Shown: one piece after another, positions 16,952 through 25,456 of the stretch
Numbering within the stretch: the stretch's first letter is position 1
Layout of the letters: each line of letters starts with the position of its first letter
Assembly (NCBI GenBank): GCA_964586355.1
Contig: CAZPGO010000011.1
Span: 1 to 32,000 of the forward strand
Length of the DNA stretch: 32,000 nucleotides
Direction: 5' to 3'
Source: an uncultured archaeon
GTDB lineage: Archaea > Iainarchaeota > Iainarchaeia > Iainarchaeales > CSSED10-239
The notes under the pieces: generated by a model
Database searches by the model: none
The model's input: only the letters and a program-made list of their open reading frames with translations
Told to the model about the DNA's origin: nothing
Made by a program: the position numbers and the translations under genes

Positions 16952-18151
16952 CTAATTTTTTTTATTTGGAAGTATTGCATTTAATATTACTCCAACAACA
17001 CTACTAAGAGCAACACTTCCAAGACTAAAGGTGCCTCCAAAATTTATTATAGCCCCTCCAACTCCTAGAATTAACATTACAGATATTATTACCATATTTT
17101 TTGTTTTGTTAAGATCTACTTTTGAATCAATAATTGTTTTTATTCCAACAATAGTTATCATTCCAAATAAAAGAATCATAATACCTCCAAGAACAGCTTC
17201 TGGTATTGTTCTTAAAAAACCACTCATTTTTCCAATAAAGGATAATATTACCGCAGTAATTGCTGCAATTCTAAGGATCATAGGGTCTGTTATTTTTGTA
17301 AGAGTTATTGCACCAGTAACCTCTGAATATGTTGTAACTGGTGTTCCTCCAAACATACCTGAAAAAAAAGTAGCACACCCATCACCAAGTAAAGTTCTTT
17401 TTATTCCTGGATTTTTTACAAAATCTTTTTTTGCAACTTTGGAAATTGCATAAATATCCCCAATATGCTCAATTATTGGTGCTATTGCAACTGGTACTAA
17501 AAATAAAATAGCTGATAGATTAAATACTGGTGCACTAAATGCTGGTAATGAAAACCAAGGTGCGTTTATTATTGGAGAAAAATCTATTTTATTTAAAATA
17601 ATTGCTGTTAAATATCCTGCAATAATTCCAAAAAGGACAGGCAGTAATTTTATTGTTTTTTTACCAAAGATAGTTACAAAGATCGCAGTCATTAAAGAAA
17701 TACCAGCAAGAACCCAATTACTACTTGCCATTTCAACTCCAACTCCTGCAAGTGCTAAGCCTATGATCATAATTACTGGCCCTATTACTATTGATGGAAA
17801 TATTTTTTGAATAAATTCTATTCCTTTTTGTCTTACAATTAATGAGACCAACATATATGTAACACCAACACCCATAATCCCACAAAGAGCTCCAGAATAT
17901 CCATAAAGTTCTATGGCTTTAATAACTGGAGCAATAAAAACAAATGAACTTCCTAAAAATATAGGAACTTTTTTTTTTGTAATCATATGAAATATTAAAG
18001 TACCACACCCCGCAGTAAATAATGCGATTGATGGATCTATACCAACTAATAATGGCACTAATACGACAGCTCCAAAAGCCACACAAAGCATCTGTATTCC
18101 AAGAATTATTTTTTTAAAAAGAGATATGTTTTTTAGATCTTCAGTTTTCAT
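16952..18151 (-). CDS. NCS2-family nucleobase permease (uracil/xanthine permease-like)
   Basis: 399 aa with about 12 TM segments. NCS2-type motifs are present (GTLIFH...VPIFLGSSF, TTYSEVTGAITLTK). Confidence 0.8.
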   Translation of the reverse strand: MKTEDLKNISLFKKIILGIQMLCVAFGAVVLVPLLVGIDPSIALFTAGCGTLIFHMITKKKVPIFLGSSFVFIAPVIKAIELYGYSGALCGIMGVGVTYMLVSLIVRQKGIEFIQKIFPSIVIGPVIMIIGLALAGVGVEMASSNWVLAGISLMTAIFVTIFGKKTIKLLPVLFGIIAGYLTAIILNKIDFSPIINAPWFSLPAFSAPVFNLSAILFLVPVAIAPIIEHIGDIYAISKVAKKDFVKNPGIKRTLLGDGCATFFSGMFGGTPVTTYSEVTGAITLTKITDPMILRIAAITAVILSFIGKMSGFLRTIPEAVLGGIMILLFGMITIVGIKTIIDSKVDLNKTKNMVIISVMLILGVGGAIINFGGTFSLGSVALSSVVGVILNAILPNKKN

Positions 18152-18239
18152 AAATTAAAGTGTCTTTAAAAGAGTATATAAATATAATTGTTTTTAATAT
18201 ATATTATTTAACATAATAAAAAAAAGAGGATTTGATAAA

Positions 18240-18455
18240 ATGCCACCTAAGATACTAAAAACAGTAAAACTAAAAACAGCATCAAAAAAACCAATTGTTA
18301 GAGAAAAAAGAAAAGAAAATACATCGCCTAATCTACGAGGAGTTTCTGTAGAAGATGTTGAAAATTTTTTAAAAGAGAGAAACCGTCGTTTTTCAATTCA
18401 AAGAAAAAGATCTGAGATTACAGATTCTAAAAAAAGACAAAAGCAAAAATATTAA
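18240..18455 (+). CDS. Small highly basic hypothetical protein
   Basis: 71 aa, about 35% K/R. AGAGGA (SD-like) lies 9 nt upstream. I recognise no family. Confidence 0.45.
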   Translation: MPPKILKTVKLKTASKKPIVREKRKENTSPNLRGVSVEDVENFLKERNRRFSIQRKRSEITDSKKRQKQKY

Positions 18456-18472
18456 TTTATTTTTGTTTTTTT
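18456..18472 (+). terminator. Oligo-T tract after the small basic ORF
   Basis: TTTATTTTTGTTTTTTT immediately follows the stop. Confidence 0.35.
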
Positions 18473-18530
18473 AGAAATTTTAAAAAATTATAATCTATAT
18501 ATTATTAAAAAGAAAAAAATGAAGTCTGAT

Positions 18531-18734
18531 ATGCCTTTAAGATTAACCCCAAAAAAATGAGTAGAATAAAAAAAAGTATAATGGTAAAAAAAAAGTGTCA
18601 CAAATAATTCTAAAATAGCATTAAAAGGCATGATCCTTGAAGATGTAACTAAATTAATATTAGAACAGAAAAAAACATTAGATTCAGAAAAAAATGTTTT
18701 ATTATTTCCAAAACAAAGAATAAAAAAAAGATAA
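18531..18734 (+). pseudogene. Possible frameshifted tandem paralogue of the 18240-18455 basic protein
   Basis: Three frame pieces: MPLRLTPKK / MSRIKKSIMVKKK / ..NNSKIALKGMILEDVTKLILEQKKTLDS..KQRIKKR. They loosely parallel MPPKILKTVKLK...NTSPNLRGVSVEDVENFLKERNRRFS...KKRQKQKY. The frame changes fall at A7-A9 runs. Confidence 0.3.
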
Positions 18735-18769
18735 ATTATATTTTATATTTTTCTAAAACATGATTAAAT

Positions 18770-19951
18770 ATGAACATATTAGTAATTAATGCAGGCAGCA
18801 GTTCTTTAAAATTTCAATATATTAATCCCATCTCTCAAGATGTTTTAATTAAAGGACTTTATGATGGTCTAAATAGAAAAGATCACAAAGTAAAATTAAA
18901 ACTTACAATAAAGGATTCCAAAGAAACAGAAGAAAAAACAATTAAAAACCATTCAGCTATCGTTGATGATCTTTTATCAAAGTTAATTGAAAAAAAAATA
19001 ATCTCAGACTTTTCAGAAATAAAATACATTGGACACAGAGTTGTTCATGGAGCAGAAGATTATTCCCAGACAACAGAGATAACAGATTCTATGTTAAGAC
19101 ATCTAAAAGCAATTTCTTTTTTAGCACCTTTACATAATCCAGTAAATATTGAATATATAGAGATCTTAAAAGAAAAATTAAAAGATGCAAAACAATTTGC
19201 TGTATTTGACACCGCTTTTCATCAAACAATCCCTCCGGAAATCTATCTTTATGGTCTTCCAAAAGAGTTATATGATAAATATAAGATAAGAAAATATGGT
19301 TTTCATGGAATTAGTCATAAATATGTGTCCTATAAAGCAAGCGAATTATTAAATAAAGATTATAATTTATTAAAAATAGTTAATTGTCATTTAGGAAATG
19401 GTCAAAGCATTTGTGCTATTTTAAATGGAAAAAGTTTTGATACTTCTATGGGCTTTACTCCTTTAGATGGGCTTCCTATGGGTACTAGAAGTGGAAGCTT
19501 TGATCCTGAAATTATTCTTTTTCTTTTAGAGCGTGGTTATTCTAAAGAACAAATAAAAACTTTAATAAACAAGGAATCAGGGCTAGTAGGTATTAGTCAG
19601 ATAAGTGCAGATCACAGAAAAATTGAAGAGTTATCTATGGCTGGAGAGGTTAATGCAAAACTAGCTAATGATATTTTAGTTAAAAGAATAGTCTCTCTTA
19701 TAGGAAGTTATATTGCAGAAATGAATGGTGTCGATGTTATTGTTTTTACAGGAGGTATTGGAGAAAAATCTGCATATTTGAGAAAATTAGTTTTAGATCA
19801 TTTTAATTATCTAGAATTATTTTGTGATGATGAACCAAATTCTGCTCATGAAACAATAATTTCAAAACCAAATAGTAAAGTTAAAGTTATGGTAATTCCA
19901 ACTAATGAAGAATTACAGATCGCAAAAGAGGTTTATGATATTATAAAATAG
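18770..19951 (+). CDS. ackA: Acetate kinase
   Basis: 393 aa. Motifs: MNILVINAGSSSLKFQ N-terminus, GHRVVHG, FDTAFHQTIP, YGFHGISH, NCHLGNG, FTGGIGE, VIPTNEEL. Confidence 0.95.
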   Translation: MNILVINAGSSSLKFQYINPISQDVLIKGLYDGLNRKDHKVKLKLTIKDSKETEEKTIKNHSAIVDDLLSKLIEKKIISDFSEIKYIGHRVVHGAEDYSQTTEITDSMLRHLKAISFLAPLHNPVNIEYIEILKEKLKDAKQFAVFDTAFHQTIPPEIYLYGLPKELYDKYKIRKYGFHGISHKYVSYKASELLNKDYNLLKIVNCHLGNGQSICAILNGKSFDTSMGFTPLDGLPMGTRSGSFDPEIILFLLERGYSKEQIKTLINKESGLVGISQISADHRKIEELSMAGEVNAKLANDILVKRIVSLIGSYIAEMNGVDVIVFTGGIGEKSAYLRKLVLDHFNYLELFCDDEPNSAHETIISKPNSKVKVMVIPTNEELQIAKEVYDIIK

Positions 19952-22000
19952 TTATTTACTAAGTTCTTCTTGTCTTAGTAAACTATTCCATTTATTATCA
20001 ATATCTTCTTGAATAGATCTCAAAACCTCTTTATTTTTTTCCTTTAATACTTCTTTAAACTTTGTTTGTGTTTTTAAAAATTCTTCAATAGATATTCTGT
20101 TTTTTGGTTTATAGTTAATAGTTAATTTTCCATCCTCATATTCATAAAGAGGCCAGAAATTACTTTCTGTTGCAAGTTTACTGATAGCAATTGTTTGTGA
20201 TGGATCTGCTTTCATATTTGTTGGACACGCAGCATATGCAATTAGAACTGCTGGGCCTTTTTTTTCAAAGGCTTTTTTTGCTTTGTTATACATATCTATT
20301 TGGTTATAAGGATTTACTTGAGCAACATAAGGGATATTGTGAGCAATTGCTATTTGGGTTAGATCTTTATTATACTCTATTTTACCATAAGAATTTACTC
20401 CAGATGGAGTTGTACTTGTTGATGCTCCTTTTGGTGTGGCTGATGATCTTTGATTCCCGGTATTATGAACTACAATTCCATCTGCAATAAAATTATGTTC
20501 TCCTTCAACTCTTAAATCAAAAGTTTTTTCTTTGCCAATTTCTTTAATGTTTTTTATAATTTCAGTATCAAAATTTTTATTTCCAATTAAAAAGTTTTGG
20601 TATTTATATTGAGTAGGATATTTTTCAATATTCCAAGGATATTTTTTACTAAAACATATGCTATAATATTTACTATCTTTTAATAACGGACGATAAACCA
20701 CAAATGTGCCTTTTTCTCTTTTTTGAATTGTTATTTTTCCAACTCTGTAATCTAATGTTTGTAATAATAATCTTAATCTTAAAATAAGTTCTTTACTTGC
20801 CGAAAGATATCTACAACTGTCTTTTTTTTTTTTTTTATAAATATACCCATCAGATAATAATAATCCTTCAATAAACGCTTCTTTTTGATCGTCAGGAATT
20901 GTATAGACCCAAGACGGAATTATTTTGTTTTTTGCACCGTGTTTAAATCCTAATGATTCAATAAATTTAGCAATATTTACTGAATATAGGTAAATATATA
21001 TTTTATCTGTTTTTATTTGTTTTAATTTAAATATTTTTTCACATGCTTTGATACATTTATCCCTACCAACTGTGCCTTCTGGTAATGCAAATCCAATTTC
21101 TCCTTTTTCTGTTCTAGACCAACCATCGCCAATATAAAGTCCTAAAAATAGCATTAAATCTTTGGTTGATTTTATAGGTATTTTAACATTATTTATACAA
21201 TTAACTTTGTAATCTCCTTTTTTTACAAGTTTTATTTTTTCAAAAGTAAAAGCTTTTTTCCCTTCTAATTTTTTTAAAGTAATAACTTGATCTCCTTTTT
21301 TTAATTCCGTAAGTGTTTTCCAAAATAATGTGTTTGGTTTGCCTCTAGGCTTTTTATCAACAATTAAAAAAGGATGATTTCCTGTTGCTTTAATATTGTG
21401 GTGAAATGTTTCAATTTCATACACTTTTTTAACGCCATTATTAAAAACGCCACTACAGTTTTTAAGAACCAATTTATGAGTTTTTTGATCAAAAGCATAA
21501 ACTTTTTCACCTACAATAATTTCTGAAACTTTTTTTAATCCATTTTCTGTATAAATTAATGAATCTTTGCTTAAACAATTCATATACCCTTCGTTTGTGT
21601 AACAAAGATAAACAAAATTATGTCCCCTCTCCAGAGCTCCAGACAATGCGGATAAGCCAATATCAAATGATCCGCCGTCTCCTGCAATTACCAAAAAATT
21701 TATGTCTTTTTTTATTTTCCCTTTTTTCTTTAATGCCAAATAAGCCTTTTCCACTCCAGAAATTGTTGCAGCAGAATTTGCAAATGCAGAATGAATCCAA
21801 GGCATATTCCAAGAAGTTTGTGGGTAGATTGTTGTTGTTACTTCTGCACATGATGTTGCACTCGAAACAACAACAGGATCATCACTAGCACTAGCAACAG
21901 TTCTAGAGATTATTCCTATAGGGCACCCTGAGCAGGTTCTATGTCCTGACACCATCACATTTTTTTTTTCTATTCTTTCTGCAAGTTCTTTTATATTCAT
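19952..22000 (-). CDS. porB: Pyruvate:ferredoxin oxidoreductase beta (TPP-binding) subunit, interrupted by an in-frame intein
   Basis: N-extein (141 aa) has the CSGC Fe-S/TPP region and GDGGSFDIG...NEGYMN. C-extein (169 aa) starts TGNQRSSATPKGASTSTTP. Joined exteins total about 310 aa, the normal PorB size. It is the last gene of the porG-D-A-B order. Confidence 0.9.
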   Translation of the reverse strand: MNIKELAERIEKKNVMVSGHRTCSGCPIGIISRTVASASDDPVVVSSATSCAEVTTTIYPQTSWNMPWIHSAFANSAATISGVEKAYLALKKKGKIKKDINFLVIAGDGGSFDIGLSALSGALERGHNFVYLCYTNEGYMNCLSKDSLIYTENGLKKVSEIIVGEKVYAFDQKTHKLVLKNCSGVFNNGVKKVYEIETFHHNIKATGNHPFLIVDKKPRGKPNTLFWKTLTELKKGDQVITLKKLEGKKAFTFEKIKLVKKGDYKVNCINNVKIPIKSTKDLMLFLGLYIGDGWSRTEKGEIGFALPEGTVGRDKCIKACEKIFKLKQIKTDKIYIYLYSVNIAKFIESLGFKHGAKNKIIPSWVYTIPDDQKEAFIEGLLLSDGYIYKKKKKDSCRYLSASKELILRLRLLLQTLDYRVGKITIQKREKGTFVVYRPLLKDSKYYSICFSKKYPWNIEKYPTQYKYQNFLIGNKNFDTEIIKNIKEIGKEKTFDLRVEGEHNFIADGIVVHNTGNQRSSATPKGASTSTTPSGVNSYGKIEYNKDLTQIAIAHNIPYVAQVNPYNQIDMYNKAKKAFEKKGPAVLIAYAACPTNMKADPSQTIAISKLATESNFWPLYEYEDGKLTINYKPKNRISIEEFLKTQTKFKEVLKEKNKEVLRSIQEDIDNKWNSLLRQEELSK
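20462..21577 (-). mobile_element. Intein (372 aa) with LAGLIDADG homing-endonuclease domain inside porB
   Basis: Cys1 (TGT at 21575-21577; CLSKDSLI, block A). TGNHPF (block B, TxxH). LAGLIDADG motifs LGLYIGDGW and FIEGLLLSDGYI. C-terminal FDLRVEGEHNFIADGIVVHN (blocks F/G) is followed by Thr+1 (ACC at 20459-20461). Confidence 0.9.
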
Positions 22001-22006
22001 AAATAA

Positions 22007-23173
22007 TCATTCTTTTATTCCAACATATCTTTTTTCTTTTGGTTTATTATCTATTACAGAGACTAAAAGGTCTTCAATATTTTTTTGAGTAATCTCCCGT
22101 CCACCAAGACCAAAAACATAAGATCTTATTTTTGGTTTGTTTTTTAGATGGTTATAAGCAGTTAATAAAATATCCTTGTAGATTGGAGAATTAGATCCTG
22201 GACCTTCACTTCTTTCAAGTACAACAATATTTTCTGCATTTTCTAAAGCTTTAGAATATTCTTCATATAAAAATGGTCTGTAAAGTATTGGTCTTAATAG
22301 TCCTACAGATCTATTTTCTTTTCTTAATTTATCTATAACATCTTTGCTACTCTCAGCAGTTGAGCTTAAAGTAATTAATACCGTTTTAGATTCTTTTGCA
22401 TAATACTCTTCATAAAAATTAATCTCTTTATCAAATATTTCTTTAAACTCTTTAGAGATCTTTTGGTAATTTTCTTTAACTTTTAAAAAAGCATCAAACA
22501 TTCCTTTTCTTATTTCAAAGTAACTATCCTGAAGTGCAAGTGCTCCAACTGTTATTGGATTATCTGTGTCTAACAAACTATAGCTAGGAGAAAACTCTCC
22601 AATAAATTTTTTAACCAAAATATCATCATATGTGTCAAGATTTTCAAGATTGTGACTTGTAAAAAAACCATCAATACAAACCATTATTGGTAAATAAACA
22701 GATTCTGCTAGTCTTAAACCAAATAATGTCATATCATAAGCTTCTTGAGCATTTTGGCAATAAACTTGCATCCATCCTTGATCTATTGCTGACATGCTAT
22801 CTGAATGATCACAATGTATGTTAATTGGTGCGGATATTGCTCTGTTTGCTACAGGCATAACAATTGGTAATCTTAGACCAGACGCAATTCCTAATGCTTC
22901 AAACATATAGAGTAATCCTTGAGAAGCTGTTGCTGTTACTGCTCTAGATCCTGCAGCTGATGCACCGATAGCTGCTGATAATGCTGAGTGCTCTGATTCT
23001 GTTCTTATAATTTCTGTATTAACTAATCCGTTTGCCTGATATTTTGAAAAGGTTTCTATTATTGGTGTTTGTGGTGTTATAGGATACATTGGAAATACAT
23101 CAGGATCTATTTGTTTTAGAGCATAAGCTATTGCTTCTCCGCCTGTCATTGCTGTTTTATTTTTTTTACTCAT
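22007..23173 (-). CDS. porA: Pyruvate:ferredoxin oxidoreductase alpha subunit
   Basis: 388 aa. MTGGEAIAYA..., YPITPQT and SEHSA motifs are typical of 2-oxoacid:ferredoxin oxidoreductase alpha. It overlaps porD by 8 nt. Confidence 0.9.
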   Translation of the reverse strand: MSKKNKTAMTGGEAIAYALKQIDPDVFPMYPITPQTPIIETFSKYQANGLVNTEIIRTESEHSALSAAIGASAAGSRAVTATASQGLLYMFEALGIASGLRLPIVMPVANRAISAPINIHCDHSDSMSAIDQGWMQVYCQNAQEAYDMTLFGLRLAESVYLPIMVCIDGFFTSHNLENLDTYDDILVKKFIGEFSPSYSLLDTDNPITVGALALQDSYFEIRKGMFDAFLKVKENYQKISKEFKEIFDKEINFYEEYYAKESKTVLITLSSTAESSKDVIDKLRKENRSVGLLRPILYRPFLYEEYSKALENAENIVVLERSEGPGSNSPIYKDILLTAYNHLKNKPKIRSYVFGLGGREITQKNIEDLLVSVIDNKPKEKRYVGIKE

Positions 23174-23450
23174 CTTCTTCCTCTTTAACCATTTTTATTG
23201 CTTTAACAGGGCAAATATTTGCACATATTCCACAACCTTTACAATAATCTAATTTTGTTTTGTCTCTTTTAATATTTCCATCTTTGTCTTTTTTAAACAT
23301 TATTGCTTTTTCTGGGCAAGCATTATAACAAAGCATACAATGAATACATTTTTTTTCATCCCAAACAGGTTTTTGTGATCTCCAAGATCCTGTTTTGTTT
23401 TCTAATGATGTTTTTGCTGGTAATACTCCTGCAATTTTTTTAGATTTCAT
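23166..23450 (-). CDS. porD: Pyruvate:ferredoxin oxidoreductase delta subunit (2x[4Fe-4S] ferredoxin-like)
   Basis: 94 aa with two CxxCxxCxxxCP motifs (CIHCMLCYNACP, CKGCGICANICP). Confidence 0.9.
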   Translation of the reverse strand: MKSKKIAGVLPAKTSLENKTGSWRSQKPVWDEKKCIHCMLCYNACPEKAIMFKKDKDGNIKRDKTKLDYCKGCGICANICPVKAIKMVKEEEDE

Positions 23451-23465
23451 GTTTTTTTCCTATTT

Positions 23466-24008
23466 TTAATAATTATAACCTTTTTCTAGGCATTTTATAT
23501 TTGGTTCTATAACTTCCAACTTGCCTTTTTTTTCAAACTCTTTTTTTATAATGTTTTTTACTGAGTCTAATGTCACTATGTTTGTTATTTTTATTAATAC
23601 TCCAATTAGCACCGTGCTAGGATTATTAATTTTAATCAGTTCTTGAGAGATGCTAGATCCATCAATAGTATAGATCTCTTTATTTTTTAGATCTTTAAAA
23701 TTTTCTTTTTGTTTAGTGGTGTTAATAATGTATGTTGAATCAAAATCTTTTAATGTAGAAATATTATTAAATAATTTATCATCTAAAACCATAACTACAT
23801 CAGGATTAGAGATCGGCTCATGTATTCTTATTGGTTTATCTGATATTCTTACAAAAGATCTAACAGGAGCACCTCTTCTCTCTGGCCCATATTCAGGGAA
23901 TGCTTGAATGTATTTTCCATCAATTAAAGCCGATTCTGCAATTAGTTGTGCACAAGTTTTTGCTCCTTGTCCCCCTCTACCATAAACGATTATTTCAAAG
24001 TCTTTCAT
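23466..24008 (-). CDS. porG: Pyruvate:ferredoxin oxidoreductase gamma subunit
   Basis: 180 aa. GRGGQGAKT...PEYGPERRGAP is the signature of the gamma subunit. Confidence 0.9.
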   Translation of the reverse strand: MKDFEIIVYGRGGQGAKTCAQLIAESALIDGKYIQAFPEYGPERRGAPVRSFVRISDKPIRIHEPISNPDVVMVLDDKLFNNISTLKDFDSTYIINTTKQKENFKDLKNKEIYTIDGSSISQELIKINNPSTVLIGVLIKITNIVTLDSVKNIIKKEFEKKGKLEVIEPNIKCLEKGYNY

Positions 24009-24124: not shown

Positions 24125-25456
24125 ATGAAAGATCTAAACAAATTTTTTAATCCAAAAAGTATTGCAATAATTGGTGCTTCTGAAAAAGAAGGGTCTGTTG
24201 GAAGAACAGTTGTTAAAAATTTAGAATATTTTTCTGGAAATAAATTTTATGTTAATCCAGGACACGATAAAATTTTTAATAAAAAAGCTTACAAATCAAT
24301 AATAGAGATAAAAGATGTAGATCTTGCAATTGTTGTAACCCCTGCAAAAGCAGTTTTATCAGTTATTCACGAAATTTCAAAAACCAATTGTAAGAACATC
24401 TTAATGATTACTGCTGGTTTTGATGAGATTGGAAATAGTAATTTGTCTTTAGAGATAAAAAAAATTTTAGATAAAAATAGAATAAATCTTATTGGTCCAA
24501 ATTGTTTAGGAATACTAAATCTAGAAAATAACTTAGATGCAACTTTTAATTCTAGAGAAAAAATAGATCTTCCAAAACCAGGCAATGTTTCAATAATCTC
24601 TCAATCTGGGGCACTAGGTGTTGCTTTACTTGATCTTTCTAGTTATGAGAATCTAAATATTAACAAATTTATTTCATATGGTAATGCCTTAGATGTTGAT
24701 GAGTCAGATCTTTTGGAATTTCTTGGACAAGATAAAAAAACAGATGTTATTCTTTGTTATATTGAAGGAATTAAAGATGGAAATAAGTTTTTAAGAGTTT
24801 TAAAAAACATAACAAAAACAAAAAAAGTAATTATTCTTAAGGGCGGAGTAAGTCAAAAAGGAACAACAGCAGTAAAAAGTCACACAGCTGCAATTGCAGG
24901 ATCTAGTGAAGTTTTCTTTTCAGCTATTGATCAGTTTGGAGCGTATTCTGTTGATTCTATAAAAGATCTTTTTAATCTTGCAAAAGTTTTTTCAAAATAT
25001 AAAAACCAAGAAATAAAAAATATTCAAATAATTACTAATGGCGGTGGTTTTGGTGTTTTGACTACTGATCAATTAGATCTAAATAATATTTCTCTTTCTT
25101 CTCTAGGTGTTGAAACCATAAAAAAAATAAAAAAAATAGTTCCAGAATATGCAGTAATAAGAAATCCAATTGATTTAACTGGAGATGCTGATAATAAAAG
25201 ATTTATTAATACCATTAAATTTTGTTTAGAGGACAAATCTGTTTCAGCAATTGCTCTTTTAATATTATTTCAATTGCCAGCAATTGATGAATCCATTATT
25301 ACAGATCTAAAAAAACTTAATTCAAAAAAACCTATTTTTGTTCTTGCAATTGGTGGTAAGAAAACAAAAGATATAATTTATAAAATAGAACAAAATGGAT
25401 TTGTTTGTTTTAGTGACCCAAAAGAGCTTGCAAGAACTTTATCAATAATACCATAA
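24125..25456 (+). CDS. acdA: Acetyl-CoA synthetase (ADP-forming) alpha subunit / CoA-binding, succinyl-CoA-synthetase-like
   Basis: 443 aa. FNPKSIAIIGASEKEGSVG (CoA-binding Rossmann), IGPNCLGI, and the phosphohistidine loop KSHTAAIAGS. No ATP-grasp (beta) domain is fused or adjacent. Confidence 0.85.
   Translation: MKDLNKFFNPKSIAIIGASEKEGSVGRTVVKNLEYFSGNKFYVNPGHDKIFNKKAYKSIIEIKDVDLAIVVTPAKAVLSVIHEISKTNCKNILMITAGFDEIGNSNLSLEIKKILDKNRINLIGPNCLGILNLENNLDATFNSREKIDLPKPGNVSIISQSGALGVALLDLSSYENLNINKFISYGNALDVDESDLLEFLGQDKKTDVILCYIEGIKDGNKFLRVLKNITKTKKVIILKGGVSQKGTTAVKSHTAAIAGSSEVFFSAIDQFGAYSVDSIKDLFNLAKVFSKYKNQEIKNIQIITNGGGFGVLTTDQLDLNNISLSSLGVETIKKIKKIVPEYAVIRNPIDLTGDADNKRFINTIKFCLEDKSVSAIALLILFQLPAIDESIITDLKKLNSKKPIFVLAIGGKKTKDIIYKIEQNGFVCFSDPKELARTLSIIP

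Follow-up and report, generated by a model that had tools for sequence, protein, structure and literature searches.

A predicted class 1 intein with a LAGLIDADG homing endonuclease in the cofactor-binding loop of PorB from an uncultured archaeon

The closest solved endonuclease-bearing class 1 inteins to the element described here are TliVMA and PhoVMA (7QSU, 7QSS, 7QST), PI-PkoII (2CW7), PI-SceI (1VDE, 1LWS), and PI-PfuI (1DQ3), in which a HINT domain carrying Cys1, a block B TxxH motif, and a terminal His-Asn pair is interrupted by a two-motif LAGLIDADG endonuclease; their hosts are V-ATPase, DNA polymerase, and ribonucleotide reductase. Inteins also reside occasionally in catalytic sites of central metabolic enzymes, as in the M. 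jannaschii (Methanocaldococcus jannaschii) phosphoenolpyruvate synthase, GlmS, and UDP-glucose dehydrogenase recorded in InBase, which differ in host and site from the case treated here; to our knowledge, none of these M. jannaschii hosts is a 2-oxoacid:ferredoxin oxidoreductase. The closest solved inteins by sequence are the Ssp/Npu DnaB mini-inteins (1MI8, 4O1R, 6FRG), found in a replicative helicase and lacking an endonuclease domain. In this study, we analyze a stretch of 32,000 nucleotides from an uncultured archaeon of the Iainarchaeota (contig CAZPGO010000011.1, positions 1 to 32,000; hereafter the window), in which porB, the gene for the beta subunit of a likely pyruvate:ferredoxin oxidoreductase (PFOR), is interrupted by an intein. 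According to a survey of archaeal intein hosts, 67% belong to replication and repair and 8% to nucleotide metabolism (PMC4760082), a list to which this locus would add a central catabolic enzyme dependent on iron-sulfur (Fe-S) clusters and thiamine pyrophosphate (TPP).

We interpret the insert, on the strength of its sequence and modeled fold, as a genuine class 1 intein with a LAGLIDADG homing endonuclease, lying in frame in porB between Asn141 and Thr514 and predicted both to splice and to cleave DNA, a reading to which we assign a probability of about 0.88. The precursor and the parts of the element are as follows, intein numbering starting at Cys1.

19952..22000, minus strand: porB precursor open reading frame (ORF), with N-extein, intein, and C-extein in one frame (682 amino acids, 2049 nt).
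21578..22000, minus strand: N-extein, residues 1-141 (alignments to 9bt4_C, 5c4i_C, and 1b0p_A; residue conservation).
20462..21577, minus strand: intein of 372 amino acids, Cys1 to Asn372, precursor residues 142-513 (profiles, AlphaFold2 model, Foldseek).
21263..21577, minus strand: N-terminal splicing (HINT) half including block A (Cys1), intein residues 1-105 (TIGR01445; Ssp DnaB match).
21368..21385, minus strand: block B, TGNHPF, precursor residues 206-211, with intein Thr65 and His68 (homologue conservation).
20588..21172, minus strand: nested LAGLIDADG homing-endonuclease domain, intein residues ~136-330 (LAGLIDADG_3; helix/strand pattern of the model; Foldseek).
21119..21145, minus strand: LAGLIDADG motif 1, LGLYIGDGW, precursor residues 286-294, with predicted catalytic Asp151.
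20840..20875, minus strand: LAGLIDADG motif 2, FIEGLLLSDGYI (contains LLLSDG), precursor residues 376-387, with predicted catalytic Asp243.
20462..20575, minus strand: C-terminal splicing part, comprising block F, TFDLRVEGEHNF (Asp354, His361), and block G, VVHN (His371, Asn372) (TIGR01443).
19952..20461, minus strand: C-extein, residues 514-682 and the stop codon, beginning with Thr+1 (TGNQRSSATP) and containing Cys592.

The sequence and fold features of a class 1 intein are all present, including Cys1, the Thr-x-x-His of block B, the Asp and His of block F, the terminal His-Asn, Thr+1, and a HINT fold; the insert begins with CLSKDSLI and ends with NFIADGIVVHN, directly before Thr514 (+1). 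Both splicing halves are recognized by Pfam Intein_splicing (E 3.8e-19, 69 bits against a cut-off of 35.8, residues 151-513) and, above their cut-offs, by NCBIfam intein_Nterm (TIGR01445, residues 142-213) and intein_Cterm (TIGR01443, residues 493-514), while Pfam LAGLIDADG_3 covers residues 371-436 (E 1.4e-8); at such scores, a chance match is out of the question. The Ssp DnaB mini-intein matches intein residues 2-107, and the DnaB mini-inteins as a group reach E 4e-11 to 1e-9 at ~30% identity over the HINT parts. The two LAGLIDADG motifs each end in a catalytic acidic residue, as in endonucleases of the DOD type. An AlphaFold2 model of the intein built from 59 sequences was confident (predicted local distance difference test score 92, predicted template modeling score 0.91), and its best Foldseek matches in the PDB were TliVMA, PhoVMA, PI-PkoII, PI-SceI, and PI-PfuI (E 3.5e-21 to ~1e-11), with query-normalized template modeling scores of 0.56-0.73 at a sequence identity of only 13-20%. 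The splicing halves matched mini-inteins and the hedgehog Hint domain, and the full-length matches TliVMA, PI-SceI, and PI-PfuI place an endonuclease fold between the two HINT halves. With 372 residues, the PorB intein is more compact than PI-SceI or PI-PfuI. The first-pass annotation of the window, made from the letters alone, had proposed a LAGLIDADG intein splitting the TPP/Mg-binding loop of PorB, and this has been confirmed to the base; the strings that it quoted (CLSKDSLI, TGNHPF, LGLYIGDGW, the second motif, and NFIADGIVVHN followed by Thr) are all present.

Removal of residues 142-513 leaves a 310-residue protein that, judged by its sequence, is a normal member of the PFOR/PorB beta family, represented among solved enzymes by M. 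acetivorans PFOR beta (9BT4 chain C) and M. thermoacetica oxalate oxidoreductase beta (5C4I). On the precursor, the NCBIfam PorB model is split into two segments (residues 7-142 to model positions 5-134, and residues 512-680 to 133-298), and Pfam TPP_enzyme_C covers residues 56-145; after removal of the insert, one continuous match aligns residues 7-302 with positions 5-296 of the 300 in the PorB model. The spliced protein aligns with 9bt4_C at E 2.5e-70 without a gap at the junction (lcytnegymn/tgnqrssatp in the query, the slash marking the junction, against vcvdneaymntgiqrssgtp), and it is likewise colinear across the junction with oxalate oxidoreductase beta (5c4i_C) and D. africanus PFOR (DaPFOR; 1b0p_A). 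Colinearity with PorB homologues had been set beforehand as a test of the proposal, together with absence of the insert from intein-free homologues, and both were found. In addition to the GDG-X26-N and YMNTG.Q motifs, the spliced protein shares with its family four Fe-S cysteines and a porGDAB operon, and the solved and characterized PFOR and oxalate oxidoreductase beta enzymes are insert-free at the position of the PorB intein.

The insertion site lies in the loop that binds TPP, Mg2+, and substrate. Aligned with DaPFOR, the GDG motif falls at residues 107-109 (D108) and the Mg-binding Asn at residue 136, giving GDG-X26-N, within the GDG-X(24-27)-N pattern of the family, while Asn141, the -1 residue of the intein, is equivalent to DaPFOR Asn996 and stands five positions past Asn136. 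The structure paper on Sulfolobus 2-oxoacid:ferredoxin oxidoreductase (PMC5020499) assigns Mg2+ binding to the GDG motif and the Asn downstream of it, and DaPFOR Asn996 lines the pyruvate pocket and rotates upon substrate binding, its equivalent residue affecting substrate preference (PMC5020499). Three cysteines in the N-extein (C23, C26, C51) and one in the C-extein (C592) are kept in at least 118 of 120 homologues. They align with chain positions 811, 814, 839, and 1070 of 1b0p_A, which we take to be the DaPFOR Fe-S ligands Cys812, Cys815, Cys840, and Cys1071, assuming a numbering offset of one residue; by this alignment, they would be the ligands of the proximal [4Fe-4S] cluster. The insert thus divides the TPP/Mg/substrate loop (GDG-X26-N...YMN/TG.Q) and separates three Fe-S ligands from the fourth, and the unspliced precursor is therefore very unlikely to be active as an enzyme. 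The insertion represents another case of the rule that inteins target cofactor-binding motifs.

The same site is occupied in a large set of organisms and empty in many others. At least 120 protein clusters (90% identity) and 219 species-level genomes from both domains carry the intein here, the latter counted as loci among GTDB contigs taken from one genome per species. Closer analysis covered the best 80 of these 219 loci, whose inteins are 54-84% identical to that of the window over all 372 residues; a pattern-based parse located both junctions in 74 of the 80, and Thr+1 was present in all 74. By their labels, the carriers include Iainarchaeota (Ca. Forterrea, Ca. Iainarchaeum), Woese-, Nano-, Aenigmat-, and Micrarchaeota within the DPANN group; Methanosarcinales, ANME-1, Bathyarchaeia, and Heimdallarchaeota among other archaea; and Omnitrophota (one a single-cell genome), Planctomycetia, Patescibacteria, Aerophobetes, Clostridia, Cloacimonadota, and Vermiphilus among bacteria. 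By intein identity, Iainarchaeota are the closest named relatives (67-68%); several genome bins labeled 'archaeon' reach 81-84%. Mis-binning of the 'bacterial' carriers was rejected for two contigs with bacterial neighboring genes, one encoding bacterial-type PheS/PheT, GlmS, GlmM, and RarA, and the other FtsK and PgpA beside porGDAB. An assembly artifact was also rejected, as the identical 682-residue protein occurs on 8 contigs, at least three of which come from different samples.

A search with the spliced extein returned close PorB homologues of 300-312 residues that lack the insert, the closest of which (P0121) is 81% identical. In a joint alignment, 120 intein-free proteins have at least 99.5% gaps in the intein columns, a clean gap by which a normal PorB domain was rejected; in-frame insertion at a conserved site, absence from orthologues, and restoration of the host sequence on removal are what is expected of a class 1 intein. 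Extein identity to the query reaches 0.81 for the best intein-free allele and 0.80 for the best intein-bearing one, both kinds interleave, and about one allele in five has its nearest extein neighbor in the opposite intein state. The P0121 locus is syntenic with the window (acs, porG, porD, an extra HD-domain gene, porA, porB, ack, a permease gene, and topo VI A) and has an intact empty site, AACGAAGGGTATATGAAT/ACTGGAAATCAAAGA, around which 48 of 60 nucleotides are identical to the joined exteins of the window. The 40-bp empty site of the intein-free syntenic relative L004 reads TTATGTTATGATAACGAAGGGTATATGAAT/ACTGGAAATCAAAGAAGTTCAGCAACACCA.

Residue conservation was assessed in 120 intein-bearing PorB homologues, 52-100% identical to the query and all of ~675 residues. 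Cys1, Thr65, His68, Asp354, His361, His371, Asn372, and Thr+1 are each found in all 120, the catalytic Asp151 and Asp243 of the endonuclease each in 117, and the active-site and Fe-S residues of the exteins are conserved in intein-bearing alleles as in intein-free ones. The motif 1 position is also held in related inteins outside PorB, where it is Asp or Glu in 148 of 150 aligned stretches. Mean pairwise identity is 0.67 for the N-extein, 0.65 for the N-terminal splicing part of the intein, 0.63 for the endonuclease domain, 0.74 for the C-terminal splicing part, and 0.57 for the C-extein; with 0.63 against 0.57-0.67 for the exteins, the endonuclease is as constrained as the host enzyme. One protein of 607 residues (P0271) bears the intein at the same site as the window, with intact splicing residues and a decayed endonuclease, which has lost both catalytic Asp residues to substitution (LGIFIASGQ, MTNTNG) and is ~60 residues shorter; it shows the decay stage expected in a homing cycle.

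The relatedness of inteins and of their hosts is in conflict. When 6786 pairs of intein-bearing proteins were compared, the inteins were more alike than the exteins in 67% (mean identity 0.636 for inteins and 0.615 for exteins, r = 0.61), which is not expected of a neutral passenger in a conserved enzyme. Among 67 complete genome loci, only 24 have the same nearest neighbor by intein as by extein. Four discordant pairs were re-checked by independent pairwise alignment.

L078 and L037: inteins 81% identical; N-exteins 48%, C-exteins 50%.
L053 and L050: inteins 76% identical; N-exteins 52%, C-exteins 49%.
L015 and L074: inteins 72% identical; N-exteins 54%, C-exteins 50%.
L056 and L040: inteins 71% identical; N-exteins 55%, C-exteins 43%.

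Inteins so much more alike than the exteins around them are a signature of horizontal transfer apart from the host gene, that is, of homing, and the population pattern as a whole (patchy presence, empty alleles, and conflicting relatedness of intein and host) is that of a homing element. The first two pairs join bins labeled as bacteria (Cloacimonadota, Clostridia) with bins labeled as archaea (Methanosarcinales, Bathyarchaeia), on short contigs with labels as binned, and may reflect intein transfer across domains. Base composition gave no sign of recent foreign import: the GC content at third codon positions (GC3) of the window intein is 0.116, within the range of 0.10-0.19 of 14 other window genes, despite a lower overall GC content (0.25 versus 0.34 for the exteins). 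Hence, the intein did not come recently from a donor of different base composition; it is either a long-term resident or comes from a similar genome.

Based on these features, a route along the standard class 1 splicing pathway can be proposed. The 682-residue precursor would be translated as a single chain, after which Cys1, assisted by Thr65 and His68 of block B, would attack the carbonyl of Asn141 (N-S acyl shift), and the N-extein would pass by transesterification to the hydroxyl of Thr+1. Cyclization of Asn372, aided by His371 and by Asp354 and His361 of block F, would free the 372-residue intein, and an O-N shift would establish the Asn141-Thr514 peptide bond. The product would be a normal 310-residue PorB that joins PorA, PorD, and PorG, the enzyme being inactive before splicing. 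The free intein would act as a site-specific endonuclease that cuts intein-less porB at the conserved sequence GAAGGGTATATGAAT/ACTGGAAATCAA, into which the intein would be copied by repair (homing); the DNA of this target would be held constant by the NE[AG]YMNTG.QRSS motif. Homing at such a conserved site would explain a distribution that is patchy yet very wide, and the PorB intein is probably still mobile.

Several points weigh against this account or its extensions. Splicing and DNA cleavage are inferred for every member of the PorB intein family. The host assignment carries its own margin: among NCBIfam models, the spliced protein scores best with PorB (326.6 bits; 274 bits with the VorB type), which is below the PorB equivalog cut-off of 405, so that pyruvate is the likely substrate and our best guess, inferred rather than proven. 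Metagenome-bin labels can err, and the cross-domain claim rests on the gene content of two contigs and one single-cell label. Finally, the high conservation of the intein could partly reflect strong constraint and not recent transfer.

Other explanations differ mainly in what the element still does. It is rather unlikely, though worth weighing, that in this lineage the intein is a splicing-competent relic whose endonuclease no longer cuts and which is inherited vertically because imprecise loss would destroy PorB. Much vertical descent is indeed indicated by the correlation of intein and extein identities (r = 0.61) and by the nearest neighbor being intein-bearing as well for 96 of 117 intein alleles; the GC3 of the intein equals that of the host, and decayed endonuclease variants such as P0271 exist at this site. 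The window copy, however, retains both catalytic Asp residues and both LAGLIDADG motifs in a domain of full length, and comparison with its nearest relatives shows higher identity for the intein than for the exteins (for example, 85% versus 73-75% with P0004 and P0006). An insert that does not splice at all, whether as a permanent extra domain or as a dead mobile element that has disabled porB as a pseudogene, is scarcely credible, given that the 2049-nt frame is open, that the splicing residues are invariant across 120 diverged homologues, and that the active-site and Fe-S residues of the exteins are conserved as in intein-free alleles; moreover, a 372-residue insert directly after the substrate-pocket Asn and five residues past the Mg-binding Asn is hard to square with activity.

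A domesticated role has also to be considered, in which the intein serves as a conditional-splicing switch, that is, as a post-translational gate that holds back the oxygen-sensitive PFOR, and with it the conversion of pyruvate to acetyl-CoA and ATP formation, until a signal permits splicing; candidate signals are reducing conditions, the availability of TPP/Mg2+ or Fe-S clusters, and docking with PorA. PFOR belongs to anaerobes, in which redox control is plausible. The insertion lies within the cofactor site and divides the Fe-S ligands 3+1, many lineages have kept the intein in highly conserved form, and a precedent is provided by the RadA intein, for which two reports document conditional splicing (PMC4513877, PMC5790916). 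A further point in favor is Cys41 (21455..21457, precursor residue 182), which is invariant in 120 of 120 PorB inteins; among related inteins in other hosts, 150 of 161 aligned stretches have Val or Ile at this position. Against such a gate, close relatives such as that encoding P0121 do well without the intein, the patchy distribution and the conflict between intein and host relatedness are those of a selfish element, the endonuclease residues are conserved although a purely regulatory insert would not need them, and Thr at +1 makes the known Cys1-Cys+1 disulfide trap impossible. Overall, we consider the gate improbable. The redox-sensitive splicing through Cys1 that the first-pass annotation had raised has no support so far and is pure conjecture; Cys41, which might trap Cys1 in a disulfide under oxidizing conditions, is the only hint of redox control. 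If the gate were real, an advantage to the host would account in part for the spread of the intein through anaerobes of both domains. The evidence as a whole favors an intein with an intact, probably mobile homing endonuclease.

Among ordinary class 1 inteins, the PorB inteins form a distinct, tight family. In a library clustered at 50% identity, they account for about two full-length representatives (440 bits), and the next matches, at most 250 bits, lie in SufB, T4-like phage portal proteins, and a methyltransferase. The nearest full-length relatives outside PorB are metagenomic SufB inteins (P0266, P0275, P0280, P0301) and T4-like phage portal inteins (P0268, P0273), which have the same domain order; they are only ~30-33% identical to the window intein, whereas PorB inteins are at least 52% identical to it, and they have Val or Ile at position 41, where PorB inteins have Cys. 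The fall from 440 to at most 250 bits, together with this low identity, sets the PorB intein apart as a separate tight family. SufB is another Fe-S-related host outside replication.

Full-text literature searches, which did not cover the supplement of the main intein survey, found no published description of an intein in PorB or PFOR, and those co-occurrences of inteins with PFOR-related terms that were checked proved unrelated. Automatic labels do exist, namely 'pyruvate/2-oxoacid:ferredoxin oxidoreductase beta subunit/intein/homing endonuclease' at JGI and 'DOD-type homing endonuclease domain-containing protein' in UniRef. We therefore regard the element as a finding of moderate interest: a real intein of ordinary mechanism in a host protein new to the literature found, and common in uncultured anaerobic archaea and bacteria. 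The initial view of PorB as an unusual host is in line with the host classes of the survey (PMC4760082) and with the literature searches, but the element itself is not rare, as the clusters and genomes above indicate. Likewise, the view that this is the only visible pyruvate-oxidizing enzyme applies to the 32-kb window alone, and dependence of energy metabolism on splicing follows for PFOR from the insertion site, as it would for any active-site intein. The observation that MCM, Topo VI A/B, and RPA in the window are intein-free was confirmed by contiguous domain matches, and the intein, when compared by phmmer with every six-frame ORF of 60 residues or more, matched only itself, giving no second intein in the window.

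There are also practical consequences. Current names for porB genes that carry the intein are 'hypothetical protein', 'LAGLIDADG family homing endonuclease', and 'thiamine pyrophosphate-dependent enzyme'; as a result, PFOR can be overlooked or misjudged in metabolic reconstructions of DPANN, candidate phyla radiation (CPR), and Omnitrophota genomes. Being large, well conserved, and apparently cross-domain, the PorB intein family offers a good natural system for the study of homing among uncultured anaerobes, and it might supply a compact Cys1/Thr+1 intein as well as a LAGLIDADG enzyme of new specificity.

Some PorB proteins have another insert, seemingly unrelated and ~340 residues long, between GDGG and SFDIG, within the Mg-binding GDG motif (P0016, P0256, P0257, P0259 from Ca. 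Ainarchaeum with 1023 residues, P0272, and P0276). It starts with CYIPGT and ends with STNMN before Ser, lacking the penultimate His; P0016 bears both inserts together, and the NCBI name for the product of a gene with the GDG insert is a 541-residue 'LAGLIDADG family homing endonuclease'. Taken with the window-type insert, it indicates that inteins occupy at least two positions in PorB, each of them within the TPP motif. In a Parcubacteria contig (L005, JBDRPV010000079.1, 6244-8274), a porB with the intein lies by itself between glmM and a DUF4352 gene; porA, porD, and porG are all absent from the 6 kb upstream and the 10 kb downstream that were covered on this contig, and the gene could encode an orphan subunit or belong to a dispersed operon.

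In the window, porB is the last gene of an operon in the order porG-porD-porA-porB, the other members of which are listed below.

22007..23173, minus strand: porA, alpha subunit (POR_N and PFOR_II domains; best NCBIfam match PorA_Arch).
23166..23450, minus strand: porD, ferredoxin-like delta subunit with two [4Fe-4S] clusters (domain matches).
23466..24008, minus strand: porG, gamma subunit (domain matches).

In the intein-free syntenic relative L004, an HD-domain (YfbR-like) gene lies between porD and porA (2240-2824), which the window lacks. The operon is flanked by genes for the alpha subunit of ADP-forming acetyl-CoA synthetase (24125..25456, divergent from porG) and for acetate kinase, the ORF of which (18770..19951, plus strand) is convergent with porB and abuts it with zero spacer. 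Two routes from acetyl-CoA or acetyl-phosphate to acetate are thus located there, and no pta is visible in the 32-kb window. The stretch 18150..18770, between a permease gene and ack, is intergenic, with a very low GC content (0.20-0.23) and a strong positive AT skew; on matching contigs, a 71-residue ORF has been called within it.

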